A stretch of DNA of 58,102 nucleotides, the filler included, from Dugesia japonica (taxonomy: Eukaryota), in NCBI GenBank assembly GCA_001938525.1. It is 5 parts of 5 records of this genome, joined end to end, with 100 filler letters (N's around TTAATTAATTAA, not from the genome) between each part and the next. Parts side by side here need not be neighbours in the genome. Positions count along the whole stretch, not along the records: positions 35,133 to 49,435 come from MQRL01577807.1; positions 49,536 to 58,102 come from MQRL01498894.1; 3 more parts are not named here. One strand, given 5' to 3'. The position numbers were made by a program, and so were the translations under genes. This document shows, piece by piece, positions 23,701 to 58,102 of the stretch (its first letter is position 1; each line of letters begins with the position of its first letter). Under the pieces are notes generated by a model, which was not told the origin of the DNA, made no database searches, and saw only the letters and a program-made list of their open reading frames with translations.

Positions 23701-24579
23701 TTATAATGTTCAATAAAATGTAAACTATTGATATATTTTTCATTTACAAATCTAAATTTTCATAAATGTTAAGACTACTAAGCAGTGATAATTGTTTAAA
23801 AAAAGTAACATAATATCAAAAATTTGTTAAAAATTTTCATTATTATTTATTATTTCATTATTATTTATTTTCATTGGTAAAAAAAATTCAAATTTTTTTT
23901 AAAGGTAAAAACGAATGCTCTAATGACACATGCGTGATTAATTATGACTTCATGAAATAATGACAGAGGTATCATGCAAGCAACTAAGTCAAATGATACA
24001 AAATTCAGTTGAAAAACAAAAAGAAAAAGAAGTCAACTGACAGACTCTTATTCCATTGCTAGTTGGAAAAATTGACAGCAGCACTTAATTGAAGAATTAT
24101 AAATCCATGCATTTGGAGTCTAATTAATTTCTGAATCATTTTATAAACAAATTATCTGAAAGATTTTGTAAATTCGAAGATATTACCAAAAATCAAGAAT
24201 TATTAATTCTAACCAAAATTTTATAAATTTGATCATGATAAATAAAATAAATTTTTCCAGGAAAAATATTCCCACATAATTAAACTGAGAGAAAAAAAAC
24301 TAACATTTAAAACAACCATTCTATCGATTCTGTGGATTAGTTTTAATTATTTTTTAAAGATTAAAAAATAAATTATAATCCTACACACAATTTTCCCTAA
24401 AGAAAATACTACTGATATTCATTAGTAGATAATATTAATATATAATTATACTAGGTTTTAATTTAATTCCGTATTTATGGCTGGTTACGGGCCAGTAATT
24501 AAACAAAACCCAATCATGACATAATACATTACAATATATTAGTTTCTTCTGTATTAAAGAATATTTATTTCAACTAAAT

Positions 24580-35032: not shown

Positions 35033-38000
35033 NNNNNNNNNNNNNNNNNNNNNNNNNNNNNNNNNNNNNNNNNNNNTTAATTAATTAANNNNNNNNNNNN
35101 NNNNNNNNNNNNNNNNNNNNNNNNNNNNNNNNATCAATTCTTCGTTTACTCGACAGCTTTTACAACTTTATTTTCTTTTTATTGTTTTATCCTAGATTTT
35201 GTTCAAAAATATATGTCACACATGCCTTGAAAAGAAATGAAATAATATGGTGGTTATGTGGAGTGGCAAAAGAAAAATTCTGATGGTGGCGTTAGTGGAA
35301 TAAACTGATGAAAAAAAATATTTTTTATATAGGTATTGGATAACGACAATAGAAGAGACATTAAAATCTAATAATGACATTCTTAGAATTGAGTAGCTAT
35401 TATTGAAAAATGAGAGATAAATTTAACCATCATTAAAGTAGCGAAAATCACTAGTAATCTAACATAATAATTATCCCAGTAGTAATTTAAATGTCGCTAA
35501 ATACACTGGTAATAATTTGTAATAATTATTATAAAACCATGAATCTTATAACTATTCGTCATTACTGATTTCAATGTCAACTCTGGCATAGACGACCCAA
35601 AAAGAAAAATAAAAACTTCATGTGTTAAAAATGATAGCAATTATTAGCAATGATTATAATAATCAATAATGATACTATTAATGATGGTGCTAGAACTAAT
35701 AATGATAGCCATTAGAATAGTGATAAATTGTCGTAATAATAAACCTGGCAAGGCCTTAATTGAGTATGACTTAATCATGATGATATAACCACTGTGAAAT
35801 AATTAGTCAGATAGAATTAATACGAATAATTAATTTACTGTCAAATAACTAGCAGTGATTGATGGTAGATAAGATTGCAACATGAACAGACTGGCCTATT
35901 TCCAGTAGTAACGAGGAAACAAAAAAAATTACTTCTAACGGTTTAGTGACGTCACTTTCGATCAGACTATCCATCGTATCCAGAAAAAAATCACAATCCG
36001 AGGTTCATTAATCTCAACACCAGTTACTTTGCCCATATGAAATAGCCGAACTATCCTATTAGTGTAAAGCCTTCCATTAACACGATTTGTCTAAGTTGAC
36101 TGCAAGACACACACCTGCAGNGATAGGTTACTCACTCAATAATAGTTCTGTCTTTCTTAACAGAAATCCACTGATCAATGGGTGTCAAAGCGTGTTGGTG
36201 TGTCGAAAGAAATATTTTCCAGTGAGTGACTGATTCACCATCATCAATGCATTTATGACGCCGTGCTCCATTACTTCATTATGCACAACGTATTGTGTTA
36301 TTTTTACGGTGAATTTATTGATCGTCTGCAAGTGGAGAGTTTTTTATTATGAATTTCAACTGGGCTTAACATTGTTTGTAGCCCTATCGGCTACAGTAAA
36401 CATTCATGTTTAATTCTGATAATTAAAGCATCAGGGAAGCACACTGTCGCCCTGAGCAAAGTGCTGTGTTGCATACACGATCATTACTGTTGAGATCACC
36501 TATTGTAAAGTAATATCATAGCCGTTGGGTAACAACATTAATTAAAAAAAATTTTTATTATAGGTAAAATAAATTTATATCAAACATTTTTTTAACAATC
36601 TCGTTTCATGAGACATAAAATATAATGATAAATAAATTACTTTTATCGTTAACAATTTCAGGCCAGCTGCAACGGGTTGTTTTCTAATTTAGAGGCTGTG
36701 AACGATTTCAATTTCCCTGGTAGTAGACTTCTTGATTCACTATCTCTTCTTCTCTTTTTTAAATCAAAGTAAGTTTNNNNNNNNNNNNNNNNNNNNNNNN
36801 NNNNNNNNNNNNNNNNNNNNNNNNNNTTAACAGAAATCCACTGATCAATGGGTGTCAAAGCGTGTTGGTGTGTCGAAAGAAATATTTTCCAGTGAGTGAC
36901 CTATTCACCATCATCAATGCATTTATGACGCCGTGCTCCATTACTTCATTATGCACAAAGTATTGTGTTATTTTTACGGTGAATTTATTGATCGTCTGCA
37001 AGTGGAGAGTTTTCTATTCTGAATTTCAACTGGGCTTAACATTGTTTGTAGCCCTATTGGCTACAGTAAACATTCATGTTTAATTCTGATAATTAAAGCA
37101 TCAGGGAAGCACACTGTCGCCCTGAGCGAAGTGCTGTGTTGCATACACGATCATTACTGTTGAGATCATCTATTGTAAAGTAATATCATAGCCGTTAGGT
37201 AACAACATTAATTAAAAAAAAATTTTTATTATAGGTAAAATAAATTTATATCAAACATTTTTTTTAACAATCTCGTTTCATGAGACATAAAATATATCAT
37301 TAAATAACATTATATGTTTGGTCGCTTTTCAAATTCAAATAAATATTTTGTTACTACAAAATTTTATAATTTCCATAATCACTCGGGATAATCANNNNNN
37401 NNNNNNNNNNNNNNNNNNNNNNNNNNNNNNNNNNNNNNNNNNNNNNNNNNNNNNNNNNNNNNNNNNNNNNNNNNNNNNNNNNNNNNNNNNNNNNNNNNNN
37501 NNNNNNNNNNNNNNNNNNNNNNNNNNNNNNNNNNNNNNNNNNNNNNNNNNNNNNNNNNNNNNNNNNNNNNNNNNNNNNNNNNNNNNNNNNNNNNNNNNNN
37601 NNNNNNNNNNNNNNNNNNNNNNNNNNNNNNNNNNNNNNNNNNNNNNNNNNNNNNNNNNNNNNAAAAAATAACCATTAAATAATAAACATATAAATTCAAA
37701 ACATTTTTTACAACAAAGTAATGACAAATATTTATTAAGATTTCATCATTTCCTCATGAATGTCAATAAAATCTTCAATTATTTGTTTGAGGATTACAAA
37801 CTTGCATTTTTCACATAACCAAATTCCTTTTTCGATGTTATTGTTATAAACTTTGATTATAGATTTAATATCTGTTCCAAAACAATCATAGACTTTGATC
37901 CAATATTTTTATGGATTCCAGTTTTGTGTTAAATTCTTTGGATTTCTAAATTTGTTTTCTTAAATGGTTTTTATAATTTCTTAAAAACTTTTTTATTTGT

Positions 38001-38712
38001 TAAATGAAAAAAAAATATAAAGCCTGGTTTAAGGCTTTTCTCTTCAGGATATTGAAATTCATCGTCTTTAGAATCAACATACCAATTTTCATCATCTGAT
38101 TTCTCTTCTAAATCGAAATATTCTCTTTCATCTTCGCTACTAATAGGCCTTGATTCATTTTCCATTAAATTTCAAATTTGTTTGTTCATTATTCTTATAA
38201 GTATATTTAATTCGATTTAGTTTATATTTTCTAAAAGTTAGTATTATTTTTTCATATATTTTTTATGATTTTATAGTCACATTGGATTAAAGTTTAAATG
38301 TTTATTTCTTACTTTATTTTAACCAGTTTTTGTATAATTAAGCCGGACTTTCCAATATTTTGCACAATTTACGCTATTTTACCATATGCTCCATAAATTT
38401 CTATATTTTACCCTGTTTTATCGATTTTATTTTTATTTTATTTTAATTATTTCTTTTATTATTATTGTTGGGGTTCCACCTGAGTTGAGTGAAGAAAATG
38501 TGGCTGGGGAAAATCAGCCCTCAGGGAACCTTTCCAAGAATTTAACCTAACGCCCCTAGGTTAGGTATTCAGTTTATGGTGGTTGACCTCTCGCTTAATG
38601 GGAGGTGCGCGCCCATAGGCCTTTGGATTTGGGCTCACTACTTTCCCTATTACCACGAATTTACTAAAGGTTAGAATGAGTCGAACAATAAAAACTTTAT
38701 TTTACATGAAAA

Positions 38713-38911
38713 TTATATGAGATCAAATGCACCCGGGTCTAACCACTGGGCTGGATCGGTCGTCAAAAAGTTGAACGGCGCCGAATCGTCATTATCGTCC
38801 TATTGGACCCATGCAGAGTTTCCTAGTTGACGGGAGAGATCGGCAATATACTGTTTTAAAAATTCTATTTTGCGTTGCAACAGTAAATTTGTTTCTTGTG
38901 TGAGAGCCTTA
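38713..38911 (-). pseudogene. Element ORF4 (copy B), 3' part; 5' part lies in a gap
   Basis: KALTQETNLLLQRKIEFLKQYIADLSRQLGNSAWVQ*DDNDDSAPFNFLTTDPSQWLDPGAFDLI*, with a premature TAG. Confidence 0.75.
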
Positions 38912-39204
38912 NNNNNNNNNNNNNNNNNNNNNNNNNNNNNNNNNNNNNNNNNNNNNNNNNNNNNNNNNNNNNNNNNNNNNNNNNNNNNNNNNNNNNNNNN
39001 NNNNNNNNNNNNNNNNNNNNNNNNNNNNNNNNNNNNNNNNNNNNNNNNNNNNNNNNNNNNNNNNNNNNNNNNNNNNNNNNNNNNNNNNNNNNNNNNNNNN
39101 NNNNNNNNNNTCGGCGACAGATAGGTCAATTAACTAAGCAAAAGTGATAGAATTAAAAAAAAAACATTTTAATATCAAAACATTTATTTAGGCAATGGCA
39201 GATA

Positions 39205-39651
39205 TTAAGTTCTCGAAGCCTGGGTACCCTTGTCAACTATCAATGGTTCGAGGGGCATTGCAGTTTTCAATTTGTGAATATCCTGAACCAGTTTATTCTC
39301 TCGGTCTTGGTAGGACCGGATAATCTCAGTGAACGACTCTAATTGAGCCTTCCAGATTCTCTCTTGCTGGTGGGATGCTTCAGCCTTGGCTTTAAAAGCC
39401 AAACATTTCTTTTTATAACGACCTATTTTGGCCTCAGCAGATGCTGTACTGGCCTCCCATCGCCGTTTTGCTAGTTTATATAGGTCCCACGTAATTTCGG
39501 CATCATCAATGGACTCTCGCATTTTCTTGGTTGGTGCAGTAGCGCGATTCAATGAAGAGTGCACTAGAAGAAAACGAACACAATACAAAGCCTTGGTGAG
39601 TAACACCGAATACTTACATTTATTGTTACCCGGTGGACAACTAACTATCAT
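39205..39651 (-). CDS. Element ORF3 (copy B), open; possible 54-bp intron 39617-39564
   Basis: Uninterrupted HSSLNR...KRRWEA...IIRSYQDRENKL...VDKGTQASRT. Consensus GTAAGT donor and ttcttctag acceptor in phase 1. Confidence 0.75.
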   Translation of the reverse strand: MIVSCPPGNNKCKYSVLLTKALYCVRFLLVHSSLNRATAPTKKMRESIDDAEITWDLYKLAKRRWEASTASAEAKIGRYKKKCLAFKAKAEASHQQERIWKAQLESFTEIIRSYQDRENKLVQDIHKLKTAMPLEPLIVDKGTQASRT

Positions 39652-39805
39652 TAATCTTAGTTTTAATATATGACAACTTCGGAATAAAAAGATTTAGTGA
39701 TAAGNNNNNNNNNNNNNNNNNNNNNNNNNNNNNNNNNNNNNNNNNNNNNNNNNNGGAATAATTAGTAATTTTATTTTAACACACAACAAAATTAATAGGA
39801 ACACA

Positions 39806-40153
39806 CTAATGGGTAAGAGTCGAATCTTTCACGGGTGCCATATTCTCTGAATCCTTGCTACCCGAGGGTTCTCTTACACCACATAATAAATTTTTAATAA
39901 AAGCTTGCACCGATGGGGGTGGGGCTACAAGTTGATAATGGAATGTCGTGACAAGGATTCGGTCCGGCCCCGTCCAGCTCTGATTATTTTGTCGTTCGCC
40001 AAAATCCTGGATTCTGGTGACGATGGCATCTACCGGTGGTAAGTTTGATCGGTCAGACAAAACACCTGCGTCGTGGTTATACGGATTCCTATGTCGCGGG
40101 AAAATTATGCAACGAGTCCTGCGGTCGATTACCCTCTCCCATATTTATTCCAT
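39806..40153 (-). pseudogene. Element ORF2 (copy B), stop at codon 3
   Basis: ME*IWERVIDRRTRCIIF... otherwise one open 116-codon frame. Confidence 0.8.
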
Positions 40154-40521
40154 TTCTGACTGAAAAATTAAAATTACCATCAACATAATACGATATTCGT
40201 AACATCAATAAATATAAAACAAAAGTAGTTAAATAATAAAAATAAGGGTAATCAACACTGAATTTTATTTTATGGTTCATAGACAGGTTCAATATCCAGG
40301 TCAATCTCCCAAGAGAAGGGATATAGTTCCTTAAAACACCTTAAATCCATTTCATCCCGGGAGAGAACAAGATGAGGGAATAGGAGGTGACCAATCAATT
40401 GCTTACGACGGGCCTGTTCTCTTTCTTGACGANNNNNNNNNNNNNNNNNNNNNNNNNNNNNNNNNNNNNNNNNNNNNNNNNNAAATAATAAAAATAAGGG
40501 TAATCAACACTGAATTTTATT

Positions 40522-40719
40522 TTATGGTTCATAGACAGGTTCAATATCCAGGTCAATCTCCCAAGAGAAGGGATATAGTTCCTTAAAACACCTTAAATCC
40601 ATTTCATCCGGGGAGAGAACAAGATGAGGGAATAGGAGGTGACCAATCAATTGCTTACGACGGGCCTGTTCTCTTTCTTGACCAATTAGGTTCAACGTCT
40701 CCCTCAGGATTGTAGCCAT
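40522..40719 (-). CDS. Element ORF1 (copy B), 65 aa, open
   Basis: Homologous to copies A and C. ttaattcag acceptor 4 nt before the ATG and AATAAA right after the stop. Confidence 0.7.
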   Translation of the reverse strand: MATILRETLNLIGQEREQARRKQLIGHLLFPHLVLSPDEMDLRCFKELYPFSWEIDLDIEPVYEP

Positions 40720-43700
40720 GTGCCTGAATTAAGAAATCAAAAATCATCCCAATGACAATAAGTTATTGTGGGATAATTCGGTGGTTCCTGAAGGTTAGTT
40801 TAGTCGGCTGGTTTGGCTAAGTCTATCGACGATCCTACGAGCTTAGTGCCTCATCAATCCCGCTTTGCGGAAAGTTTTCGGCCTACCGATGAACGTTTAA
40901 TTAATAGTCATACTATTAAATATTACCAACAAAACGCTGACAATCTATGTATTAGTAAGGGTTTTTAATGCGAGTACTAATGTCACCAGAGCTACCGTCA
41001 ATCGGGTTAAGATGAGTAATTTTAATTGGGATGATAGTGATACGTTGATAATAATATGAATTACGTCAAATGTAATATTAAAGATTATAAAATTGTTACT
41101 CAGATTGCTAAGGAATAAATATTGCGACAGGAATAAATATTAGTGCTGGTAATGAGATGAATCGTTGCAATAATGTTAACAATGTTCTTATTACTAAAAT
41201 TACAAGGGAATTATAATAACCCAATTACAATAGCCATTTAATTACCGGCGAGATTATTTTATTATTAATTTGATGTCTAGGCTCTACCAAATAGACCAGA
41301 TGCCATATTGTGGTGAATAAAACACTGCATAAGGTGTCACTAATAATGTTATTAACAAAGGAGAAAGTCAGGGCTAATGAAATATTCTGTTGAATTAATT
41401 CTGGGTAACATGCCCTTAATGTCAACTCTTACAAAAGTGGAGTCTGACTTGTTGATGATTATCCAACACGATAAGGGATGAATCAGAAATAATATTCTTA
41501 TTTTGCAGTAATATTCCACACTAGTGGTGACAATCTTAGTAGATTCATGGACATCAATGAATTCGTATCTTCCTATTGCTAAATGGTGTGTTGGATAGCA
41601 AATAACAATTTATACGCAGAGGGTTGGTATATAGATTATGGAAGAGTTAGTGATTATTACACACCTGCTTCTGAATCATGGATATTTTCCTATCGGACGC
41701 GTTTCGATTCTGATATTAATCATGAGTGGAGTGTAATTTGCTGCTGTTTTGTTAGAAGGGCTAACCACAACTCATATGCGGAGGAATTCAGGTNNNNNNN
41801 NNNNNNNNNNNNNNNNNNNNTTTTTGAAATTAATGATCAAAATAAATTAGATGAACGTTAGGTTATGCAGCAGGTAAAATTAAATTTACTGTTATTTGGC
41901 TTTAAAAAGTATATATAAATTTTTTCTCATTTGATCTTATGAACATATATAGCATAATAACTTATCGAGTAAAAAAATAAGTTTATAATTTCCACCTGTG
42001 GTATTTATTCACCAGCAGCATTTAATGCCTTTCGCATAAATTGAAAGTAAAACCAATTTTCATGTATAATAAGATATATNNNNNNNNNNNNNNNNNNNNN
42101 NNNNNNNNNNNNNNNNNNNNNNNNNNNNNNNNNNNNNNNNNNNNNNNNNNNNNNNNNNNNNNNNNNNNNNNNNNNNNNNNNNNNNNNNNNNNNNNNNNNN
42201 NNNNNNNNNNNNNNNNNNNNNNTTTTCTTTGGGGAACAATCAATTCAAATTTATAAATTAAAGATGTTACTTTATTAGTTTTTTTTCTAACTATTGGCGA
42301 GAATCCTTCGCAATCGTATCAGAATTATTTTAATACTCGAGTAATGCGATTGACACAAATGGATAAATAAAAATTGAAAATTGTTGTTTTTCGTTTCAAA
42401 TCAAGGGGGTTTAAATATCATTTTACGAGACACCCCAACTTGTTTGGCATTGGTCTGCTATTTTTAGTTTGAATCTTCCGTACTTGATTGATTTTGATGA
42501 TAATTTTCTGTAATTTTTTTAGAGTTTGAGAACTCTAATTGGCAGTTATTTTTAAAACCTCATATGATCGATTGTGCTTTGTCTTGTTTTTATTTTCTGA
42601 ATNNNNNNNNNNNNNNNNNNNNNNNNNNNNNNNNNNNNNNNNNNNNNNNNNNNNNNNNNNNNNNNNNNNNNNNNNNNNNNNNNNNNNNNNNNNNNNNNNN
42701 TCACTCTTCTTGAATTTTCTTGCGCTGAATTCCTGTGATTTTCTGGAGCAAAGTTATTCTCATAAAATGAATTTTGGCCTAATTTTAATTTATTTTAACC
42801 TTTAATTAATTCATATTTTCTTTATAATTAATTGTTTTGGTTAATAATTTTCTTGCTTCTTTAAATAATAATTTAATAATTTTCTTTAANNNNNNNNNNN
42901 NNNNNNNATTATCCAGGTTCATTGTTATAGGCTTTTCTTATGTTGCTCCCTATTATCATTAATTTCCGACCCGGTCTGATTTTAGTACTTGTTTTTAAGG
43001 TTAGTATTTTTTCCCTCATACAGTATTATTCTTCTCCTTCTTATGGTACTTGCTGGTTTAAGACCCTCCTGGTCTAGTTTTTTCGTTGACTGGGTGTTTC
43101 ACCCCAACATTATTTATTTTTTATTATTATTTATTTTATTATTTTATTAGTCGAGTATTTATTCGAAAAATTATTTTCGTCTCTTTCAATAAATATTTAA
43201 AATTATTTCAAATTATCTAATGCTTAATAAAAATGTTCAATTATTATAATTAAAGTTTGAAATGAATTTTTCATTATTTTCATTAAGGTTAAAGATTGAC
43301 GATTTTTAATGATGTTATTCTTACGTAGCATTAACTTCTCTATCTAATAGTTACTTTGATGCTTAAATTTGAGTTAAGCTTCTATTTTCATTAATACTCG
43401 ACTCTTATTTAAAAAACATCATTTAACTATTTATTTGAAAGATTTTTCTAAAATTAATGTTTTTACATAAATTCAAGTTGTATATACTTTACTGATAATT
43501 ATTTGAAAATTATTAAATACCCCATACTTAATCTATTTATCTATTATGAGTTATTTCCAACAATTGTTTAGAAATTATTTTAATGAATCAATGCTTAATA
43601 AAAGTTTTCTATTATAAATTAAACATTAATTACAAAATACATGCGAAATCTAATTTTATTTAAAAATATTTCAAAGTTTCATCAATAATCAATAAACCTT

Positions 43701-46700
43701 TAATATTATAATTTTAATTTAACCATAAAAATATATATATAAAATGTAATTTATTTTCTAAATTACCTTTAAAATTTTATTCAAAACATAATTCAATTTA
43801 CTAATAAAAGCAAAGTTTTAATCAAATTAGCTATTGAAAATTAATCAATTCACCATACTTAATTTATTCAATCAAATATATGGATTATTTTCAATAAATG
43901 ATTATAAATTATTTCAATGAATCAATCTTAATAAAAAATTCATATTATAAATAAAACTTCAATTAAATTTTAACGATAAAAATAGAACACTAATTAAAAT
44001 AATTGAACTAAAATAATCTAGAAAACTAAAACCATGTTGTATTGTTGTCTGAAGATTGGTGAGTAGATAAATTTTATCCAAATTTATCTAAAAAGCTACC
44101 CAAAATTGACCTTACCCAATAAATTATCATATTTTTCTGTTCCTCGGGGACTCCAAAATTAAGCACTTGTTTTTTCAATATGACTACTTATCTATACAGT
44201 TGGTGATTTTTAAACCGTGTTATCCGTACTCACCGTAAAACATTCTATCGAATAGTATTAATTTCGATAAATTTTGAGGAATTCTTATACTTTCAAAAAA
44301 TGTTACCAAGTCCGGGAGGACGGCTGTACATATTTGTTAGGAAGCATTTTTACAGAGACGATATTTAAACTTTGTACAGTTACTTTTTCCTCCTGAATAA
44401 AATAATATCAAATTTGAAATCATACGAGTTATGTACGCAGAGAAAATTGAGTTCAAAAATTCAAAATTTGAGATTTTTTCATGACAAAACCCCATTTATT
44501 TCATCGAGTATTAACTTTAGCAATTTTAGGTTAACATATTTGGAATCAGCGAAAAAGTCTCTATAGAATAGACACTATTGGGGTGAAACACCCGTTAAAA
44601 AGGGAAAAAAGGTAGAAAAGCCGAACCAACCGAAAGGAACGGCAAGACCATTATCAATCGTGAAACATAGAAGGCAATGCATGAAATACAACAAAAAAGA
44701 ATGAAATAAAATCGAAGAGGAATACAGAGAACCAGGTGAATAAAATTAGCATAAATCAATATTGGGAATTAAGGAGAATTATTAAATAGTAATAAAAACC
44801 AAGAAAATCGGTATGAAAATAATTAATTAACAGAAGAAAAATAATGATTAATTTTAAATAAAAAAAGAAGCAAAATTAACAAAAACATTCGTTTTATCCG
44901 AATAACTTCGCTCAAGGAAATCAAAAAGAATCGGGGTAAAAAAATACAGAAAGAAAATATCGAGATGCAGTTGAAATTACTAAGAAGAAAAACTTACCAC
45001 CTTCCAGAGGGTTGCTGCAGGGTCCTAAAAATCGAACCAATTAGAAATCTAAAAATAAAAATAAAACAAAGACACAATTATCATATGTCAGTCCAAAAAT
45101 AGACGCCAATGGCAACTCTAAAATTCTGAAAAAATTTAGAAAACTGGCACTGGAACCAATAAAACCAGAAAACGTTGATCTAAAAATAACTAACGAATCT
45201 GGAGGAAGTTGGGGTGTGCAGAAAATCATATAAAAATGACCCCTGAATTTAGCAAGAAACAGACTAAAAAATAATAAAACGAACTACAACAAACTTTGAT
45301 AAATTGTGAATTCCAAAGCACATATTTGAAATCGGAAAATTATCAAGAAAAAGAATAATATTATACTAGTTAACTTAGAACGAGGAAAATTGCACTCCAA
45401 CGTACAGGGAAATCAAAACAAAGAATTTACTTCGAATCTAATTGAAAGGTCGTCACTCAAAAGCGGAAGGAAAAACCTTAATCTTGAATCAAACCCGTTG
45501 CAGAAATTCGTCAATTGATATTAAATAAAATATTTATTTTATTATGTAAAGAATTGCATGGTCAGAAAATTTTGATGTTATGTATTTCTAATAAAATATG
45601 TATATTAAAATTTCAATTCATTATTTAGTCAATTAAACGTATTAATAGATAGAAAATAGACTACTGTGACTTTGAATGATAGTAGACTCGTAAGTGACAT
45701 TTTACGGTAAATTCCTTGTAACGTTCATTAAATTAAAGAAAGTATTAACACATAAACATCTAGAGACCCGGTTAATTGAGATCTAAACAAATTTATGCTT
45801 ACCTGTGGGGTAAAAGTATAAACCAAAAATCGAATACGTCATAGTTTTCCTTTGCTAAGATTGTGAGTGAAAAAAGATAAAATTCCAACAATTTATTTGA
45901 CAAAATAATAAACTATTTCAGTTATATCAGAATCATAATAAATCCACAGATTTTAATGATAAGCGTCCACTAATGTGTCGATCACTGACTCTGATCGGTT
46001 GAATTCTACTGATATGGAATGGCCACATTTTTTGTCATAGAATAGAAATAACTATCGCATTTCATAATTATGTTTAAAGACAGTGAATCATCACCTAAAA
46101 TTATAACTGCCAATAGGTTGTGCATGTGCACCAACCCAAAAGTCATACCATTAGAATGTGTACTCATAATGATGGCTGGATGTGGTTGTTTAACTCTGTC
46201 CTCGCAACCCTACAAGAGACTAATTCTATGCACACCTACATGTTGCAGATCCATCTAATCGGTTGTCAAGGGGATAAAATCACCATGCAACGGTGAAGTG
46301 TGGAGGTTTAAAATAGAAAAAATTTTATAATTATTATAAATCTCATAATTTATGATTTTCTTATTATTAGATTCATTATTTTATTACTATTAATAATTAC
46401 CTTATTGTAGGTCTAATTTCACGACAATCATCATATACCGTCAGTGTTGGTATTAGTGGTTTAACCAGAGTAAAATCTTCCCTTTATTAAAATTGAATAA
46501 AATTCAAGATTATGATTACTATTAGCCGCTGGGGTGCCATTCCTGATGTCAGAATTGTTATTCTTATGTTTTGAGCACCATGGAGAATATTTTTCTTCCG
46601 TTATAGTACTAACTCCCATATGATTCGGGTTCGGTTGTTTGATGTTGCGGTGCAACTTATTATGGTTAATCGTCGATAATGTTTGACGAACTGTCATTTC

Positions 46701-46860
46701 CTTGCCCGAATCATTCTAATCCAAATTAATATCATTCCCTTAAATATTATCTTTTAATGAGGTACACCACATGGTCATATTAAGGGTCTGTGGTTACTTT
46801 TCGTTTTTAGGGAACTCAGTCATAAGTCGAGAATGGTGATTAATGACTTCATTCTTTAGC

Positions 46861-47043
46861 ATGCCCGCAGAATTATATCAAACCATACGGTGGATTAGAA
46901 GGCAACGACAAGTTAGTTGGACGAAACAATTGATAGCGCACCTATTGACCCGAGGAAAAATAGAGCATCCAGACGAGACAGATCTTTGTTGTCTAGTTGA
47001 AATGTTCCCCTTGAACGATGGAGTAGATCTAGATGAAGAGTAA
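46861..47043 (+). CDS. Element ORF1 (copy C), 60 aa
   Basis: KQLIAHLL...PDETDLCCLVEMFP aligns with KQLIGHLL...PDEMDLRCFKELYP. tttag lies 1 nt before the ATG. Confidence 0.65.
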   Translation: MPAELYQTIRWIRRQRQVSWTKQLIAHLLTRGKIEHPDETDLCCLVEMFPLNDGVDLDEE

Positions 47044-47179
47044 CCTTAGTTGGTTGATTCCCATACGATAAAATAAATTGTATAAAAGCTTACTTTGTTT
47101 CTAAATTGTTAACTTAAATTGTTTTTCATTTTAAAATTGTTCTATTTGAATTTTGGTACTTATTCCGTTTTTCTTGGCT

Positions 47180-47528
47180 ATGGAATCCATCTGGGGACGA
47201 GTAGTCGATCGGCGGACTCGCCGTATAGTTTTCCGTCGACATCACAATCCCCACGATCGAGACGCAGGAATTCTGTCCGACAGATCAAATTTACCTCCCG
47301 TCGAAGCTGCTGTAGCCCGTATCCAGAGCTTCGAGGAGCGCTTGAGTTTTTCTTCAGTGGAGTGGGCCGGAGCGCAATCATGCTACCCCGTTCCGGTATC
47401 AACCCCCAGCACCCCCGCTAGTAGTGCAGGCTTTTATTGAAAATATGCTATGGGGAGTTAGGGAACCCTCCGGGTCGGAGGATGCCGAAAATTCAGCTCC
47501 TGCCGAAAACATTACTCCTGACCCTTAA
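47180..47528 (+). pseudogene. Element ORF2 (copy C), one frameshift
   Basis: 349 nt versus 348 in B. MESIWGRVVDRRTRRIVFRR... / VQAFIENMLWGVREPSGSED. Confidence 0.8.
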
Positions 47529-47732
47529 TGTACAACATGTTGTGAACTGATTCGTTTAATAAATGAATGTTTTAATTAGTCTAAACAAGTTTTCTTCAGT
47601 TATTAGTTTTAATGAACAAGTCACTTTAAAATCACTCTATTAGATTTTTATACCTTGAATAAGGTTGTATAATTGTCAGTAATTCAGATATTGATGTTCT
47701 GAGAGAAAAGCTATTACCACCTTTTATTTTAG

Positions 47733-48111
47733 TGCATTCCTCCTTAAATCGTCCCACAGCTCCTACCAAAAAAATTCGAGACACTAGTGAGGACAATGAA
47801 CTCACTTGGGACTTATATCGTTTAGTAAAACGACGCTGAGAAGCCGACGTGGCAGCTGCCAGTAGTAAAGTCTTCCGTTATAAAAAGAAGTGTGTTCTCT
47901 ACAAAAAGGAAGCAGAGGCCTCCCACCTACAAGAGCGTACCTGGAAAAGCAGGTGGAATCTTTTTCGGAAATTATCCGGTCCAGCCATGACCGAGAAAAT
48001 AATCTGGTTAGCGATATCCTGCGACTACGAGAGAGCATTCCGCTCGAACCTTTAATGATTGACAAAGCACCCAGACCCGCGGAGCTAGCTACGTTCATGC
48101 TTTATAAATAA
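47733..48111 (+). pseudogene. Element ORF3 (copy C), with a stop and frameshifts
   Basis: HSSLNRPTAPTKKIR...KRR*EA.../ESFSEIIRSSHDRENNL...PLEPLMIDK. Confidence 0.8.
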
Positions 48112-48187
48112 AGTTATTATTAAATTTTTCTAGTGTAATTCGTTAATATGTCAATAATCATTCAAAATTTTGTAAATTAATATAATA

Positions 48188-48583
48188 TTGCTTATTTTAG
48201 TGCCTCACACCAATTTCCCAAATAGCATCCGCCGATGTCACTGTATATTGCGCCGCCTGTTGACAGAGCGACATCTAAAACGGAAGACAGATAAATCTCT
48301 ACTAAGACACCTAAACCAACGGGATAGGCTAATNAAAAAACTCGACCATATAATAAAGAAACAGGGTGATCTAGCCATCCAAACTAAGGCCCTGGAAACT
48401 GAAACCAAACAGCTTTTACAAAGGAAAATAGAGTTCCTAAAGCAGTATATAGCAGACCTTTCCCGCCAGATTGGTAATCCTGCCTGGATTCATTGGGACG
48501 ACAATGATGACGTCGCCGCCTTTAATATTACCGTCACCGATCCAACTCAATGGTTAGACCCAAGGGCTCTGGATTTAATATAA
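48188..48583 (+). CDS. Element ORF4 (copy C), open frame; start uncertain (TTG, or spliced at 48200/48201)
   Basis: Colinear with 4446-4844. AATAAA downstream. Confidence 0.7.
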   Translation: MLILVPHTNFPNSIRRCHCILRRLLTERHLKRKTDKSLLRHLNQRDRLXKKLDHIIKKQGDLAIQTKALETETKQLLQRKIEFLKQYIADLSRQIGNPAWIHWDDNDDVAAFNITVTDPTQWLDPRALDLI

Positions 48584-51500
48584 ATGTTTTAGTAAAATAA
48601 AATGTGTATAATTGAGATCGTGTTCCTTTTCATGAATTATTAATAATAGGGAAAATAATGAACCCGAATACAAAGGTTTGTGGGTGTGCACCTCCCATTA
48701 ATAGACAGGTCAACCACCATAAACTGAAAATCTGCCCTGGGGCGGTAGATCTAAATTCTTGAAAGGGTTTCCCTGAGGGCTGTTTTTCCCCAGCCATCGT
48801 TTTCTTCATTCAACTCAGGTAGAACCCCAACAGACACTTTATTAAAATATTTAAGAAGAAAAATATTTTCGAAACATTTTTATCTGTGTAAAATGATCGC
48901 CGTAAAATTTTAAGCAGTTTGGTATTAAAATCTTTGAAATCTGAGATATAGAACATATTTTTTCAAAACTTTAGATGGTTTACTCAGACTACCAACAAGA
49001 CTTCATTTAAAAAATTTTAAATTCTCATACTATTTAAACAACATGATCGGTTTGTCTAGATTCTTTTAAAATATTCCCATTTAAAATTTTTAAAAACTGT
49101 AAAATTTAAAAAAATTCAACTTTTATCATGAATTTCCTTAAAATTCAACCCAAACTGACCAATCCTATAGAAATTATCATTCGAATTCTCCTAATACTTA
49201 CCCTTGTGAGGAAATAATTAACCAAATCGTCCAAAACTGACCAAAACAGACTAATGTGAGAAATATTCGATCAATATTACCTAAACTGGGTAAAAAAAAT
49301 TGACCAAATTGTCCAAAACTTAACCAAATTAACCATTCACTGAGGAAATAATTGACCAAATTAACCTAAAAATTACTTTTGTGAGAAAATAATTAACCAT
49401 TCCCGAGAAAAACGTTGATCGAATTTACCTAAAACNNNNNNNNNNNNNNNNNNNNNNNNNNNNNNNNNNNNNNNNNNNNTTAATTAATTAANNNNNNNNN
49501 NNNNNNNNNNNNNNNNNNNNNNNNNNNNNNNNNNNAATTTTATAGATATCTGAAAATCATAGCATGGATTCTTTAAAAAGCATGAGTTTTTTGAATTTCT
49601 ATATTTTTCTAATAGCTAATTTCTTAATTATTTTTATTAAAATAATTCAACAATTTATTAATTCTTTATTTTATTTAATTGATTACATTTTAGATTCAAG
49701 AATGTCCGAGGGAATGGAAAATCTATCATTTCAAGAGAAAGTTCAATTATTTGAATTTGCAATTAGTCGAAGTTCTCATTAAATATTCGATTGTTCAATT
49801 ATTCAATTATTTTTTATTAAGTAGTTTTCATTGGTGATTAAATTGTGAAATTCTTTTTGACATGGTGTTATGTAATATCATTAGAAACTGTAATGAAGTT
49901 GTTCACTACTAATAGCCACCACCACTACCACCACCATATCAGCATTTAATAATTAATAATTTATTATCATCATCGTCATCATAATTAGTTGAAAATTTTA
50001 TTATTAATTTGTAATAATCGATTGTGGGTGGCCTTATTTAGCATTCCATTGATTTTAGATTTTTTATGTACATTTGTCCCTCTTTTCTATGTTGCGTTTT
50101 AGTGTTTGTAATTCAGTTTTTTAAATTTTTTTATTGTTCACAATTTTTCAAATGAAATTGTTGATCTTTAATTTGGGATCTGTTTTTTCTTATGCAGTGG
50201 ACCGATTTTTTTAATATCATACATTCGTATTGATTTTGTTTTTTTTTATTTTTTTTTCAATTTAATGTGATTAATTGTTAAATTATTTCTGATTACTTTT
50301 TAATAACTAGATTCAATTAAAATTGATTTAGATAGCTTAACTACTCACAAAACAATAAGTTATAAAAAATTTAGCATTTCTCTCTTTGAATGTATGTTTG
50401 ATCTCAATTATTAATTTCAATAAATAGAGCTAAAAATCTAATTCTAAAATGCTTTTATTTTTATGTTGGAAAATTTATTGAATTTTCGACAGTTATTTCT
50501 CAGTTGAAAATTAAAAAAAATCTCAATGTTAGACTCTACAATTTAATTGATCGGAGAAATATATACTTTTTGAGCAATTGACCAGCACTTCACATCATTC
50601 ACTCATGCATTCACCTATTATCAGATACATTATAAATTTATTCCATCAAATGTGTAAAGATCAATATTGGAATATTATATAATTCGCAGTTATGTCACAT
50701 AATTACTGTTAGTTAATACAACATTTTTTCCAATAAAACTTCATTCATTACAAAACTTTGATCATTTGATTTTATTTACTTTCTGGCTGAAATTACATTT
50801 CCTCCATTTTCTTAAATTCACTATTCAAATAAACGTTTTGTAATATGTTAATGTTTATTTTTAAAAAATTAAATTAATATATGTTGGGCTAGAATGCCTG
50901 AATAACGGGAAAATACGGGGTTAAAACGTGACTGATTGAGTAAATCAAACGAGCAGAAATTAAGAAATTTGATATACTGGACCAGAAAATTTGATTATTA
51001 TAAGTATTATTATCATTATTATTATATTATTATTATGGGTATAATTATTATGAATCTACTATAAAAGATCCGAAAATGAAAATTGGGCGCAAAGAACTCT
51101 GAGTTGGATTATCAAGATAATTTGTTAGAGAAATACGACAAGAAGGTTTAGATAAATAGTAAAAATCATCTTCTCTATGATATTATATTAAAGGGGCCTC
51201 TATGACCCTAATTATTTATTATATTAACGGTAATTTCCGTTTAATATTATTATAATCTCTTAATTAATGAAATAATCTGGTCCAGTCATTGTCTGGTTAG
51301 GGTTAATGAAGTCTAAAATTAACAACAAAATCAGTGAATCACCCTAAACCAGACAAAGAAAATTGATAGCAACCACACCAGTCACCCGAGGTCACACGAG
51401 GTGACTGATGACAACAAAATCACCAACAGTGATAAGGAGCCATACAGTCAAAGGAGCAGAATTAGGAATGGCGGTTATTGATTGGCCGGCTAATGAATAC

Positions 51501-51759
51501 CCGCAATCTGTAGTTGGAAAGAGTGAATAAAACTGGAATACTCAGCAAAAATAGACACTCTTTCACAATCAATTTTGTATTATTTATTAACCTATTGCAA
51601 CTTGTAAGAATTTCGTCTATTTGCAAATTAATAACATTTACCAGTGGAGAAAATCTAAGTATTAAAAAAGTCATTTTTAATCATATTGCTAATATTATTA
51701 TAATGTATGCCTTACATGCTCGAGTGTTCTAAGAAGTCGGATGGTCGTGCTACCATCAA

Positions 51760-52110
51760 TGTTGAAACAAATTATATGAAAATTCCAATGAATTAAAATA
51801 GTGAGACGAAATAATATGATCGCAACAAGTTGCTGCAAACTTCCAGAAATAATTGCAAACAGTTTAATGCACTCATTATCATCTATGTTGAAATAAATTA
51901 TATGAAAAATTCCAATGAATTAAAATCATGAGACGAAATAATATGCTCGGAACAAGTTGCTGTAAACTTTGAGAAATAATTGCAAACAGCTTAATGCACT
52001 CATCAATATCAAGATTGTAAAAAATTAGATGAAAATTTCTAATGAATTACAATCGTGAGAAGAGTAAATGCTATCGGAAAAATTGTTATAAAATTTGAGG
52101 AATAATTCTA
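51760..52110. repeat. ~126-bp tandem repeat x3 inside element D
   Basis: Units start at 51760, 51886 and ~52013 (TTCCAATGAATTAAAAT...GAGACGAAATAATATG...); the third is more diverged. Confidence 0.8.
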
Positions 52111-52912
52111 AAATATTCAGAGGAACAAAAAGCGAGAGCGGAATGAAGGTTGTCGGACACAGTATTACTAAATTGAGACAAATGTTATGAGACAAATTAA
52201 TAGAATTGGATTGCGATAATGCAACATTAAAGTGAAATATCTAGAAAAAAGAAAAGATATAAAATTATAATGAGTTGAAAGAGGTGACACGGAATGATAG
52301 AGGTCAAACGGCTGATTAAATGAGACGGACCTGCTTGAGGGAACAAATGAATTTAGATCAAATTTTTATGAGTAGGATGGGAGCTCGATGATTATGATTT
52401 AACTTAGATAATAAAAAAATATGTTGTGCAACTTAATGTCATAACTTATTTTTAGTTTTTTTTTCTTTTTTGGTATTTTTAATTGGAAAATTTGGATAAA
52501 CTTTATGTTAATTTTTTCGCAATGTATCAATTTTAATTTTACAAGGAATTAGAATAGTATCATAAATATGCACTTCTTTTTCTTTAGTTTTGACATTTAA
52601 ACATGCAAGCAATTGAATTATAAATTGAGTAATAAATAAGTCTTAAATTAAAAGATTCAAAGCATCTTTACTCCATGATGAACTAAACATATCTTACAGA
52701 AAATATTAAGGAATTTAGAAGCAGAGCTTCACACTAGTGGTGACTAGAAAAGATGATTGCTTTAGTAGGCACCTTCTCTGGTCCGTACTATAGAAGCAAG
52801 GGGACCAGAAATGATAGGCTGCATTCCGAAAAAACGGAAACTGGTTATAATCTTTATTTAATTTATATTTATTGATTGAGTCGGAAAAATACGTAATTTT
52901 ATATTAATAGAA

Positions 52913-53317
52913 ATGACAGCATATTTCAAACCCCACATACTACTAGTGCTCTCAAATGACGGCGAAGAAGGAACCTTCTGGATCCCATGGCGAAAAACAG
53001 TAGAGCTATTGGACGACCAGAAAGCAATTTATGAGAAGGAGAAACAGGAGATGAGAGCAGGTCAGCAGGAGTTAATGAAACGCCACCTTGAGCTGCGGCG
53101 GCAATTGAAAGCAGTCAGTGACGACACAGAGAAGCGCAGAGACGGTTGGATTTACAAACAGTGGCCCGAGAGCTCTCAACGGCAACACACCATATGATTG
53201 ATCACCAATTTTTGATGAAACAAATGGAGAAAGTGATTTTCAGGCAACTGATTGATGACACTGGGGTCATGACCGAAGCATGGGACCCAGTGTGTATTAA
53301 AATCGAATCTCTGTAGG
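52913..53317 (+). pseudogene. Element D coiled-coil ORF, probably frameshifted
   Basis: tag|AA ATG context as in family-1 ORF2. 94-aa ORF plus an out-of-frame continuation to TAG, then AATAAA. Confidence 0.55.
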
Positions 53318-53617
53318 AAATAAAATAAATGTATTGATGTTGTGCAAGTGTCGACTTTGTTTGTTTGTTTGTTTGTTTAATTACGTGATATGTATGTCAC
53401 GATGTTGATTTATTTTTATCATAACGACCTGCAGAGGCGGCGAATAATTTAATTACGATAGTAATTTAGTTTTAGTGAATGAAAGTTTTGTTTATGTTAT
53501 TCCTAAAAGTGGCGGAGTGGAAAATTTCCATTCTCATAATTAAATAATGATAATAACATTACTGATAATATGCTATAATTACTTTTACATGCATTCATCA
53601 TAATAAAATTATTTTAG

Positions 53618-53927
53618 TGAACAAATCTAGCGAGGAAATGATCTAGAAAAATGATGAGATGGCTGCACAGAAAAAAGGAAGGACGAGAGGCGCGAGTTGC
53701 GCAATGAAATAATGAATCTAAAGGGGCAACTGAATAAGTCGTCCAAATTGAAAGAGAAGGAGTTGGCTCTCCAGCAGACCAATTGTCTCATGGCCGATAT
53801 CATCAAGATATACGCGGACCATGAAGCTACAATTTTCCACACTCTGCGAACCTTGTGGTTAAATTATCGATCGTCGGAAGAGTCCACTGATACAGCGGAC
53901 AATACAGTGGACCTGGATGCACTATAA
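53618..53927 (+). pseudogene. Element D ORF3 homolog
   Basis: ttttag|TG start. ERRELRNEI...KEKELALQQTNCLMADIIKIYADHEATIFHTLRTLWLNYR, then AATAAA. Confidence 0.7.
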
Positions 53928-56900
53928 CCAGTGGAGAAACTGTAAATATATAAATAAACGTTAATTGATGTTCATTGAGTTGTTCTGAATTACGACTGTG
54001 TCTGGTAAAGTAAAATCATAAGTGTTATTACAAGCCGAATTTCAACTGAGCATTTGAGAAAAATTGTTGTTGGGGTTCAAAAATTTAGTGAGTAAGACGC
54101 GATACCACAAAGTCGCGTTGAACCCAGGAAAGATAGGGGCATGATACAGAGGTACTATAAACACTTGGGGTTTTTAGGTGTGCCTCTAGACATTATAGTG
54201 AATTACTAAATTTGAAAGTGAGATCAGAGAGTTATAGAGAATAATTTAAAGATCGAAAGCCTAAAAACCCAACATATATATTTTTTACAAATTTAAGATA
54301 TTAAATATAAACTCTATAATAAATTTAAAATTTATTCAAAAAATATTTTCATGTTAATTTAACAAATATTTTAATTTAATATTAAATATTATAATTTAAC
54401 AAATATAATTTAAGATTTGATAAGTTTTAGAATGTAACATTTATATTTAAATTTATCATTAACCTTTACAATTTCGAAGGTAATTAATTTTATTAGTTAT
54501 TTAGGATTTAAATCCACTCTTTAATTAATACAACTTTAAAATCTATTCTAATTTAATTTTAGAATTACATTCGAAAATTTACCAGTAAATTTTAAAAATC
54601 ATTTTAAAACTTATTTTTAAAAGGTTTAGAAATTCCCAACGTAAAAATATCTTACAGTAGCAATAAGTACCAGATAACGAAATCTATCTTTGATACTTTT
54701 ATCAATAATAATTTGACTGTAAATCAGAAAAATCAATATTCGACTTGCTTCTCTTTTGTAATTATCAACAGACTATAAAATGTAGTTTGGAGGCATTCAA
54801 AACTCTCTTCCAAGAAATGAAGTCATTCAGTTTGTTGGGCTGGAACACATCAAGAAATACAAAATGAGACATAAAAAAATGTTGAAAATAAATGAGTAAA
54901 ATAAGGACAACAGTGGGCAAATTGGATGTTCTGGACCAGAAAATCTATTATCATGAATAAAATTATCATTATTATTATATAATTATTATTATAATCATTA
55001 TGAAATTATTTATGAAAATATCAAAAAAAATCGAAAATTGGACGTCAAAGACCCAAATGTCGCCGCATATGAATGAAAATTATATCAGATAAAAGAGAAT
55101 CACGAACTAAATAATAAAAATAATATACAATAGTATAATAAAATGTTAAAGGGCTCTCTGCGACCCGTTTTATTTATTATAAATAACGCTAATTAGCGTT
55201 TAATATTATTGAAAAGTTAATTAATTTTGGTCCAGTCATCTTCTTGCCTTGTCTGAATCTGATGATAACAGTTGCAAATAAACAAGGAAACTGATTATTT
55301 ACCGGGAGTCAGACAAGGACTTTCCATGGAAACCAACAGATTCATCAGAGGTCACATGAAGTGACAGTCAAAATTTATCAAAATCCGAAAAGTCCGAATT
55401 TGTGTGCAAAAACACTGAGATACGCACACCAATCTGGAAGGCCGGAGAGAGAAAATTCAAAAGGATTGGTTGGCTAATCGAGGGCCAGATTTTCCGTTCA
55501 TCATCTTTAATAAAACCCGGCTAATCGAAGAAAAAGCACCACTTTTTTAAAACAATTTTGTTTTAAAAAAAATTTTTTAAATCGTTTTATCACAAATTTA
55601 CTGTTTGTTATAACTATTAACGGGTCAGGAGGAACCCAAAAATCATTTTATTTACAACTGTTAAAGGATCAGGAGGAACACAAATTCATTTTATTACAAC
55701 TTTTAACCGACCAGGANGAAAACAAATCAAGTAAATTTTACTTAATTTAACTAACATTTTGTGACTGTTTTTCCGAGTGTCCATATCGAGATAGTGTTTT
55801 ATTTACTGGTATGATGCTATGGATGATCGTGTTCCCGAACGAGAAATATTATGATCACCGCGAGAAATCTTATGAATGGAACGAGAAATATTTTGGCAGA
55901 AAAGCGCAATATTATGATCAGAACAAGAGAGCTTCTGAACCGAATGAGAAATATTATGGATAGAAAGAGAAACAGATAAATTACGTCCAGGAAAGCGACC
56001 AGAAAATTCATCCGAAAAGTAATCGAGAAAAAGTATAATATAGCAAAAAATGACGTGCCGACAGTGCTCTAAAACAGTAATCTGGAGAGTGAATAGAAAA
56101 GCACTCAGAAGCTATCTATCATTGAGAGAAAAATTGCGTACTGAAAAGTAATATTTACAGTAATCCAAATCGAGAGAGAAAATTGAGTGCAGAGAAATAA
56201 ATTTACTGAGGAAGGTTTGGCATGAGCGGCGGTTATGATAGGTCGCAAATAGCTCGGTCGGAATCAGGCAGAGAAAGCTCGGTTTATGTTTTGTTGTAGA
56301 ATTGTGTTACTGTCTGGTATTTTATCTGTATACACATTTATTCGATGCTACTAATTAATGATTTTAATAATACTTAGTTTAAATTGATTTCTTTGGATTT
56401 TAACGTTTTATTTTCTAAATTTTAATGTTTAGTCGAAATAGAATATTCACGATTGATAAATAATACCTAGCGATTGAGCGTTATATTTTTCTTACTCGGC
56501 GAAAATCGCGTCGACACTGGACGATTAAGTAGATTCAACTCAGAAATTCTATAATGAATCAACTGTCTAACAAATGTTTTTGGAGGGATTATAATCCACA
56601 ATCTCCAATCATATGAATGATAAAATTCGAATTAATTTGTTGGCTANNNNNNNNNNNNNNNNNNNNNNNNNNNNNNNNNNNNNNNNNNNNNNNNNNNNNN
56701 NNNNNNNNNNNNNNNNNNNNNNNNNNNNNNNNNNNNNNNNNNNNNNNNNNNNNNNNNNNNNNNNNNNNNNNNNNNNNNNNNNNNNNNNNNNNNNNNNNNN
56801 NNNNNNNNNAGTAGGGCGAAGAGCTCGTCTATGTGTAATATTTTGTCCAAAATGTTTAACAAATTTATCTTCGCTTTATGTTTTGCTCAATTTATAAATT

Positions 56901-57046
56901 TTTATTAGACGTATCAAGATCAGGAATCAAATGTGCAATCCAAGGCAGCCGCAACGTCGTATTTGGATCAGGACGGAAATTACTACTTGGAATAGAAGGA
57001 AGTACAAGCCATGCTAAATCAGGTGAGAAAAGAGTAGGCACTGATA

Positions 57047-57343
57047 ATGCAGAGTTTAAAGGCGGCTTTGAAGGCGGCGCAGTTGCAAATAATTATCAAA
57101 GATGCAAACTGGCACTTGGCAGAATACCAGCTAAAATGTCTGCGAGAAGGAGAAGAACGAGAGGAGAACTCGAGTGCGGATCATGCACCGGAGGTGGAAT
57201 TATGCATAACCAACGTACGGACCATAGTCGGAGGTGATGAAGAAAAGGAGGAAGCCGAGGAAATTCGAATTATTCAGGAGCTGATGCAAATGCGGGATAG
57301 AATAGCCATCTTGCCGTTATGTTCTGATGGCCTTGATGTTTGA
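57047..57343 (+). CDS. Element E acidic/coiled-coil ORF, likely the remnant of a longer frame
   Basis: 98-aa ORF with raised GC at the same position as D 52913-53317, but no obvious similarity to it. Confidence 0.4.
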   Translation: MQSLKAALKAAQLQIIIKDANWHLAEYQLKCLREGEEREENSSADHAPEVELCITNVRTIVGGDEEKEEAEEIRIIQELMQMRDRIAILPLCSDGLDV

Positions 57344-57618
57344 TTTTAATAATGTCTTGAATAGAAAGTTTTTTAAACTGGAGTTGGCTTATTATTTTGG
57401 TGTGTTCAAATGTGGAAGTAATAATATCGACGCCGTAATATGTACGTCACTGCAAATTTTATATGGTATTAAAATTGTCCGCAGAGGCAATATATAATGG
57501 AGTAAACAAATTTTTTTTGTAACGGCCGAATGTTGGCGAGTTTAGGATCTTTTCGAACTAAATTTATTTATACAATTTTTATTGCGCCATCATTATTTAA
57601 AATGTGTTTACATTTCAG

Positions 57619-57937
57619 TGAATAAAAGCAACGAGGAATCCATCCCGAGAAAAGAGGTGTTTATGATGAAGAATAAATGGAAAGAGGAGCGCAGGGAACT
57701 CCGAAACGAAGTGTTAAGATTGAACGGCAGGCGTCAAAACAAACGGCTAAATATGATCAGCATAAGGAGAAGGAGCTATTCCTATAAATGTCAAACCGAC
57801 TCATGGCGGATGTTATTAAAACTTACGCGGATCGTGAGAATTCAATGTTCGCGACCCTCCGAACAATGTGGATAAACTACCGAACTGCACCAGCAGAGGC
57901 TGAGGAGAAGGGCGTATCGGTTAATTTAGATTACTAA
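57619..57937 (+). pseudogene. Element E ORF3 homolog (frameshift plus stop)
   Basis: tttcag|TG start. KNKWKEERRELRNEVLRL/RQASKQTAKYDQHKEKELFL*MSNRLMADVIKTYADRENSMFATLRTMWINYR, then AATAAA. Confidence 0.75.
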
Positions 57938-58102
57938 TTTAATGTACAAATAAATTTTAGAAAAATTAGTTGAATTATTTTGATATTTTTGTTGTGGTCA
58001 TAATCTTCCGAGCATTTGGTGAATAATAATCAAAGTTTAACGTCGACATGGTGTAACTGAAGCAAATTGTATCATGAATTACGGAGAATGTGAGAGTTAT
58101 GG

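Follow-up and report, generated by a model that had tools for sequence, protein, structure and literature searches.

The window analysed here is a stretch of 58,102 nt of Dugesia japonica DNA (assembly GCA_001938525.1), made of five joined parts. It contains five units, elements A to E, with ends of the type TGTTGGG...CCCAACA and several small open reading frames (ORFs). Elements A, B and C form family 1, and family 2 consists of D, E and the database relatives of the last ORF of D and E. This last ORF, hereafter the helix gene, and its relation to the third ORF (ORF3) of family 1 are the main subject of this work. The elements and the ORFs concerned are as follows.

Element A (family 1): 4198-8227, minus strand; direct repeat CATT; ORF3 at 4947-5305, with one stop.
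Element B (family 1): 38466-43109, minus strand; direct repeat TTAT; ORF3 at 39205-39563, an open frame.
Element C (family 1): 44576-48832, plus strand; 5-bp direct repeat GACAC; ORF3 at 47733-48111, with a stop and a frame break.
Element D (family 2): 50882-54274, plus strand; 3393 bp, TGTTGGG...CCCAACA, 4-bp direct repeat TATA; likely a solo long terminal repeat (LTR).
Last ORF of D (helix gene): 53618-53927, plus strand; opens at AG|TG; stop at 53644-53646; frame break near 53674-53678.
Element E (family 2): 54833 to past 58102, plus strand; left end preceded by CAGTT; 163-N gap at 56647-56809.
Last ORF of E (helix gene): 57619-57937, plus strand; opens at AG|TG; frame break near 57713-57736; stop at 57785-57787.

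The class of elements A to E

The first-pass annotation of this DNA had given D and E the termini TGTTGGG/CCCAACA. D indeed extends from a TGTTGGG at 50882 to a CCCAACA at 54274 with TATA on both flanks, and E opens at 54833 with a TGTTGGG after CAGTT and is still open at 58102. Since D ends 347 nt past the stop of its last ORF and the window ends 165 nt past that of E, the right end of E should lie about 180 nt beyond the window if E is colinear with D. D and E are real elements related to each other, with two shared DNA blocks (71% over 339 nt and 71% over 84 nt), the second of which is part of the last ORF. The perfect terminal inverted repeat measures 9 bp in A, 9 bp in B and 7 bp in D; the left end of C carries one change in the terminal motif, and the left end alone is visible for E. 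Direct repeats flank four out of the four complete elements (CATT, TTAT, GACAC and TATA), the chance of a 4-bp flank match being about 0.007 per element at window composition and greater for B and D, whose flanks are AT-rich. Within the window TGTTGGG occurs 13 times against 3.5 expected, a count reached in none of 100 shuffles.

An excerpt of PMC3601003 gives TGTTRNR...YNYAACA as the general consensus of LTR ends and describes inverted repeats of about 7 bp and AATAAA signals in animal Metaviridae. The unit ends conform to this consensus, and the target duplications of 4-5 bp in all four complete elements are within the 4-6 bp expected around an LTR unit. The units resemble the Metaviridae LTRs of that excerpt in their short inverted repeats and AATAAA, and differ from them by their length (3.4-4.6 kb overall, 3.3-3.4 kb for D and E) and by the presence of several selected ORFs behind splice acceptors. 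Because the ends are those generic to LTR integrases and the inverted repeat is merely 7-9 bp long, solo LTRs of a large Ty3/gypsy element are the best fit for A to E, and we consider this assignment likely. The known sizes of such elements fit as well, since Burro exceeds 30 kb in total with an internal region of up to 25 kb and plant Ogre LTRs measure 1.9-6.5 kb (PMC6431247). The source would be a large Burro-like Ty3/gypsy retrotransposon, whose integrase would have inserted the full element and made the 4-5 bp duplication; recombination between the two LTRs would have left a single LTR behind, and the copies would have decayed after insertion.

Two observations weigh against this assignment. 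No primer-binding site, polypurine tract, gag/pol or paired LTR adjoining any end was found in the window, so that the LTR identity is indirect, and the duplication of C is 5 bp long (44571-44575 and 48833-48837) against 4 bp in A, B and D. Likewise, no paired-repeat or gag-pol junction was present among the loose contig ends listed for A. AATAAA hexamers are many and the 3' ends are structured, with too few RNA reads on A for the end mapping that a U3-R-U5 organisation calls for.

The absence of an internal retrotransposon region from the window and the target duplication of its own that each complete unit carries would also suit whole non-autonomous cut-and-paste elements, bearing small cargo genes and moved in trans by a Ginger/TDD-type transposase. 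According to an excerpt of PMC2836005, Ginger1 and Ginger2/TDD share with our units TGTNR ends, duplications of 4 bp (5 bp in TDD) and a length of 2.6-7 kb. The same excerpt, however, attributes to Ginger1 and Ginger2 a DDE transposase and long inverted repeats (40-270 bp or 50-180 bp), neither of which was found in the units: the inverted repeats are 7-9 bp, the unit ends match at 14-21 of their first 40 positions, and the two ends are otherwise unlike, as U3 and U5 are. A Pfam scan of 16 element frames, the longest of 162 aa, detected no transposase, integrase or reverse transcriptase, although non-autonomous copies would lack a transposase too. We regard a transposon of this type as unlikely, and solo LTRs with accessory genes as likelier than a new class of cargo transposon.

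Contigs from two DNA runs mapped on A in numbers of 4112 and 4380, mostly at less than 95% identity, which shows that the family of A is large and diverged; mapping depth is not to be equated with copy number, as the mapping tool warns.

The helix gene of D and E and its relation to family-1 ORF3

The proteins encoded by the last ORFs of D and E are 49% identical when the breaks are written as X. Codon differences between the two number 13/7/22 at the three positions over 38 codons and 6/1/13 over 15 codons, and the proportion of synonymous differences (pS 0.74) is to be compared with that of nonsynonymous differences (pN 0.26). This shows purifying selection on the helix gene between D and E. 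Both copies are broken, each by a stop and a frame break; for E a single frameshift had been proposed, and the frame break is indeed present, but there is also an extra in-frame stop at 57785-57787.

A first profile search returned 12 proteins, of which four are short true relatives and eight are multi-stretch repeat proteins. A second search, performed with a profile lacking the family-1 rows, returned 18 relatives at E-values of 5e-15 or lower on contigs of 508-2243 nt. The motif Y-A-D-R/H-E is found in 20 out of 20 family-2 proteins (the 18 relatives, D and E), whose pairwise identity ranges from 25 to 85%, and 18 out of these 20 carry an acidic V/I-x-L/F-D tail, against 9 out of 877 window segments. 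One relative, P0002, shares 59% identity with E; its frame is open, and it shows the whole register put forward in the first-pass annotation, K15 included. As for the repeat proteins, P0003, P0004, P0006, P0008 and P0010-P0013 form a tandem-repeat protein family with the unit A-D-E-M-L-x-x-Y-x-G-R-E, and the four that were scanned had no Pfam match at cut-off.

For the helix family, searches gave no match in Pfam at the curated cut-off (eight proteins), none in PHROG (12 proteins) and none in PDB under an E-value of 0.25; the sequence searches of these three databases yielded sub-threshold generic coiled-coil matches alone. An ESM Atlas search likewise returned weak unnamed matches alone (recognition 1601), and a search for homologs of B ORF3 gave two candidates, neither of them significant (lengths 64-207).

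The relatives come from contigs of environmental or run assemblies that give no DNA context, which is a point against the reading preferred here. Searched in viral contigs and in metagenome contigs, their DNA context gave no match, and in a prokaryote genome collection one stretch was matched, without a locus. Together with the N gap in E, the source of the relatives and the prokaryote match could indicate that E is chimeric across the gap, or that the gene was captured from a host or a virus and is foreign to the elements. D, however, has the same layout with no gap, the acceptor of the last ORF lies 2736 nt from the left end in D and 2786 nt in E, and in both elements the gene is preceded by conserved motifs. 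A chimera or a capture thus appears very unlikely.

Profile comparisons make it likely that the helix gene of D and E is a distant relative of family-1 ORF3. With a profile of 14 relatives, no single-domain non-member out of 898 sequences scores better than ORF3 of A and of B (A3 and B3; E-values 1.3e-3 and 1.7e-3), and ORF3 of C (C3) has an E-value of 0.16. The scores of B, A and C were reached by 0, 0 and 1 out of 2000 full shuffles, and by 0, 2 and 3 out of 2000 shuffles that preserve the heptads. In a control with a 6-row profile, the counts were 0 and 1 of 150 column shuffles. HHalign with the deepened profile gave 79-81% (P 1.3-1.6e-5, 64-71 columns). When a family-1 profile was used, 12 out of the 18 relatives outranked every unrelated window segment. 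Around the Y, the hydrophobic positions -7, -4, -3, +7, +8, +11 and +14 coincide in both families. DNA depth on A is greatest over this same segment (bin 4952-5093); 47 and 55 contigs diverge immediately ahead of position 5029, and 19 and 14 immediately past 5087.

Several results count against this kinship. In comparisons limited to the window, the B-E score of 52 was reached by 3-8 and the A-E score of 47 by 48-88 out of 3000 shuffles; two of the six pairs had p<0.05, no pair with D did, and HHalign gave 4.7%. The reverse HHalign comparison gave 26% (P 7e-4). The match is carried by about 22 residues around Y-x-D-R-E and requires a 7-residue gap, the family-1 tail (L-I/M-V/I-D) fits the V-x-L-D motif less well, and four seed relatives had been found with a profile of mixed families, which introduces a slight selection bias. 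Moreover, eight of the 12 matches of the first search are unrelated-looking repeat proteins with the same motif, and under a 3-sequence profile a repeat protein reached 16.1 bits per domain against 15.9 for B3, so that convergence is possible.

If the match were convergent, both families would still be solo LTRs, and their helical proteins would be unrelated and share a short amphipathic motif. This is consistent with the marginal statistics of the window, where D alone shows nothing, with the occurrence of a similar motif in unrelated repeat proteins, with the 7-residue gap and the lack in family 1 of the L-A-L-M-Q-T-N-R block typical of family 2, and with the p of 0.013 that the upstream ORF of E also obtains against C3. 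In contrast, the 14-sequence profile leaves the repeat proteins at 10.3 bits per domain or less and A3 and B3 at 13.5-13.6, and the shuffle and heptad controls and the ranking of the relatives under the family-1 profile argue for common descent, as does the likeness of the genes in length, late position in the element and type of ends. We judge convergence improbable, and on balance we lean towards gene-bearing solo LTRs of two distant lineages, with one helical accessory gene probably common to both.

The idea of a shared core gene, already put forward in the first-pass annotation, is therefore supported after profile comparison with composition and heptad controls and by the relatives, but through a short C-terminal segment and in another register than the one proposed. 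In the gapless alignment of E (break as X), W0, E32, I46, Y49 and D-R-E-N do match B, with 11 identities in 55 columns against B, 8 against A and 8 against C, whereas the alignment of the families needs the 7-residue gap. A K at 15 is absent from E in both frames. The W at 0, held to be conserved, occurs at a spacing of 49 in two of the 20 family-2 proteins and at a spacing of 56 in two others, and is absent from 16. D does not follow the gapless register, being four residues shorter and having a stop at 53644-53646 and a frame break at the place of the W. The low DNA likeness of D and E to family 1 was confirmed, with one weak blastn match (C-E, 65 nt, E-value 5e-4), and alignments of the end regions reached p<=0.05 in one out of 24 comparisons, an AT-rich match. 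An old superfamily defined by common termini is weakly founded, because TGTTGGG...CCCAACA is the general LTR consensus and lends little weight to kinship between the families.

Neighbouring ORFs and other features of the window

The other features of D and E are the following.

Conserved non-coding 5' block of D: 50965-51289, plus strand; 71% identity to E 54919-55239; candidate promoter or leader.
Conserved non-coding 5' block of E: 54919-55239, plus strand; counterpart of the D block.
Tandem repeat of D: 51754-52107, plus strand; 127 bp, 2.8 copies.
Tandem arrays of E: 42-bp at 55591-55727 and 21-bp at 55862-55972, plus strand.
Upstream ORFs of D: 52913-53197 (94 aa) and 53194-53316 (40 aa), plus strand; after AG|AAATG; no relative detected.
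Upstream ORF of E: 56909-57343, plus strand; 144 codons; in-frame stops at 56993 and 57035; acceptor without ATG.
Structured 3' end of D: 54068-54274, plus strand; internal TGTTGGGG can pair with the terminal CCCAACA; fold z -2.5.

The ORF order is identical in A, B and C, where the helix gene would be the third of four; it is the last in D and E. The neighbouring ORFs had been taken for exchangeable cassettes. They are indeed without detectable similarity, as comparisons of the D upstream ORFs, the E upstream ORF and the family-1 ORFs gave no match, and 8 out of 97 ORF pair tests gave p<=0.05 against about 5 expected, scattered beyond the D-E last ORF and the matches of B3 and A3 to E. Fast divergence, however, explains this dissimilarity as well as swapping does, and cassette exchange is thus not shown. 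A second shared gene (D upstream versus family-1 ORF4, or D versus E upstream) looked plausible by eye and was rejected, none of the pairs having p<=0.05.

Upstream of their last ORF (53385-53520 and 57435-57545), D and E have kept the short motifs ATATGTAyGTCAC and GCAGAGGC, and a GTCAC-n5-GTGAC palindrome lies in the 5' regions of both; these motifs and the palindrome are possible promoter or splice signals. At the 3' side of D, the copy of TGTTGGGG located 207 bp from the right end can pair with CCCAACA in a way that 3 out of 200 shuffles equalled. No duplication was matched around it, and A, B and C have no equivalent. In family 1 the 3' ends (4198-4319, 38466-38590 and 48708-48832) are the best-conserved non-coding part and have a common predicted hairpin; as a conserved structure this hairpin was rejected, with none of 28 pairs showing a compensatory change in the three sequences. 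ORF1 of C carries at 46840-47043 a motif like H-x6-EHxDETDxxC-x3-MxPL.

Outside the five elements, a 1.8-kb stretch at 868-2693 lies between TGTTGGG and CCCAACA, with no matching duplication and no likeness to either family. The window is AT-rich (GC 0.18-0.41 per kb), and an excerpt of PMC11410931 puts A/T above 70% in the Schmidtea genome. Pfam searches of the window revealed eukaryotic gene content (10965-11447, 24520-25831, 20589-21376, 28485-29163, 32125-33479 and 2970-3371), namely a host RWD-domain exon, a gene for an immunoglobulin-like membrane protein, and decayed fragments of mariner, hAT-like and reverse-transcriptase sequences. ARAGORN and Rfam gave no match. Near-identical direct repeats flank 50-N gaps at 40231-40682, 36157-37312, 1053-1230 and 9250-9413, and are likely assembly overlaps rather than true duplications.

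Expression, possible function and known systems

The ORFs of the elements each lie behind a T-rich acceptor, and an AATAAA comes after most of them. That the helix gene and family-1 ORF3 both open at AG|TG holds for E, D and family-1 ORF3, but AG|TG also opens family-1 ORF4 in A and C; AG|AAATG opens ORF2 of A and B as well as the D upstream ORF. Since AG|TG is not specific to the helix gene, it points to a common mode of expression and not to shared descent of one ORF. P0002 has no methionine within the first 38 residues past the acceptor position, and no conserved coding exon was found ahead of AG|TG, either among A, B and C or between D and E, so that the start codon is likely completed by splicing of a leader exon to AG|TG. 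The small genes would then be expressed from the LTR promoter, each behind its own splice acceptor, by alternative splicing and polyadenylation. The RNA data do not show such expression: A collected 92 of 13.6 million and 23 of 11.6 million reads (about a quarter of each run), none with at least 95% identity, and no splice joints on A were listed in the mapped RNA. A search of sequencing runs with D and E listed no RNA run.

The helix gene is predicted to encode an accessory protein of about 100 residues that forms a single helix. An AlphaFold2 model shows P0002 as one helix (16-104; mean predicted local distance difference test, pLDDT, 83; predicted template modelling score, pTM, 0.43) and B ORF3 likewise (12-101; pLDDT 86, pTM 0.44), both with a loose, unstructured tail, a single helix being a generic result for shallow alignments. 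An excerpt of PMC3901395 describes the SUMO-binding motif SIMb as a VIDLT core with acidic flanks, which the acidic V-x-L-D tail resembles, several members deviating from the core. The helix would likely pair as a predicted coiled coil and present this tail, and the tail might engage host SUMO-linked chromatin or silencing factors, aiding expression of the element itself. Chromatin silencing guided by Piwi-interacting RNAs (piRNAs) uses SUMO. As a tentative and rather doubtful possibility, we propose that the protein is an accessory regulator of the coiled-coil type and interacts with host factors marked by SUMO. A more far-reaching version, which we hold to be distinctly less probable, is that the giant LTRs are multi-gene units whose leader is joined to alternative acceptors, that the gene kept across lineages (at saturated synonymous divergence) encodes a coiled-coil SUMO decoy against silencing, and that solo LTRs could act in trans even when gag/pol has long been lost.

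Complex retroviruses encode accessory genes in U3, such as nef of human immunodeficiency virus and sag of mouse mammary tumour virus, which lie in or overlap the LTR and are expressed by splicing. These have one gene per LTR and LTRs much shorter than the units described here, and the two are likened by description. Burro/GYPSM1 of planarians shares with our elements the status of a very large LTR element of an AT-rich animal genome, accessory ORFs, domains of ubiquitin-like signalling (Ubi2/SUMO-like) and an implied LTR length in the kb range (PMC6431247). Its accessory ORFs and domains are internal, whereas the small-gene arrays here lie in the LTR, the likeness being one of description alone; its hallmark is a giant gag-env-pol polyprotein with BIR, MATH and BCL2 domains, and the window is without an internal region. 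The Drosophila MDG1 group, according to an excerpt of PMC11952523, has accessory ORFs of 70-110 aa under selection (sORF1 and sORF2), which makes it alike. In the same excerpt, sORF1 is located in the nucleus and comes from a short transcript formed through alternative polyadenylation. Compared by description, the MDG1 sORFs differ in lying unspliced between LTR and gag, sORF1 with a predicted helix-turn-helix and sORF2 with a central hydrophobic segment (PMC11952523). In the excerpt of PMC13524379, a survey of env-carrying gypsy elements that includes flatworm members, LTR-borne ORFs are not mentioned. Our literature search found no description of ORF arrays inside planarian LTRs; it did not cover the original Burro paper, and such arrays may partly be in print.

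Silencing of LTR elements by piRNAs matters for cell differentiation in the planarian group (excerpt of PMC8532177). If the units are indeed solo LTRs, the LTRs of animal gypsy elements can bear several spliced protein genes under selection, one of which would be common to lineages whose DNA has diverged past alignment. The helix gene would then serve as a marker by which thousands of repeats, anonymous otherwise, could be classified, and it would be a concrete candidate regulator encoded by a retrotransposon in such a group.

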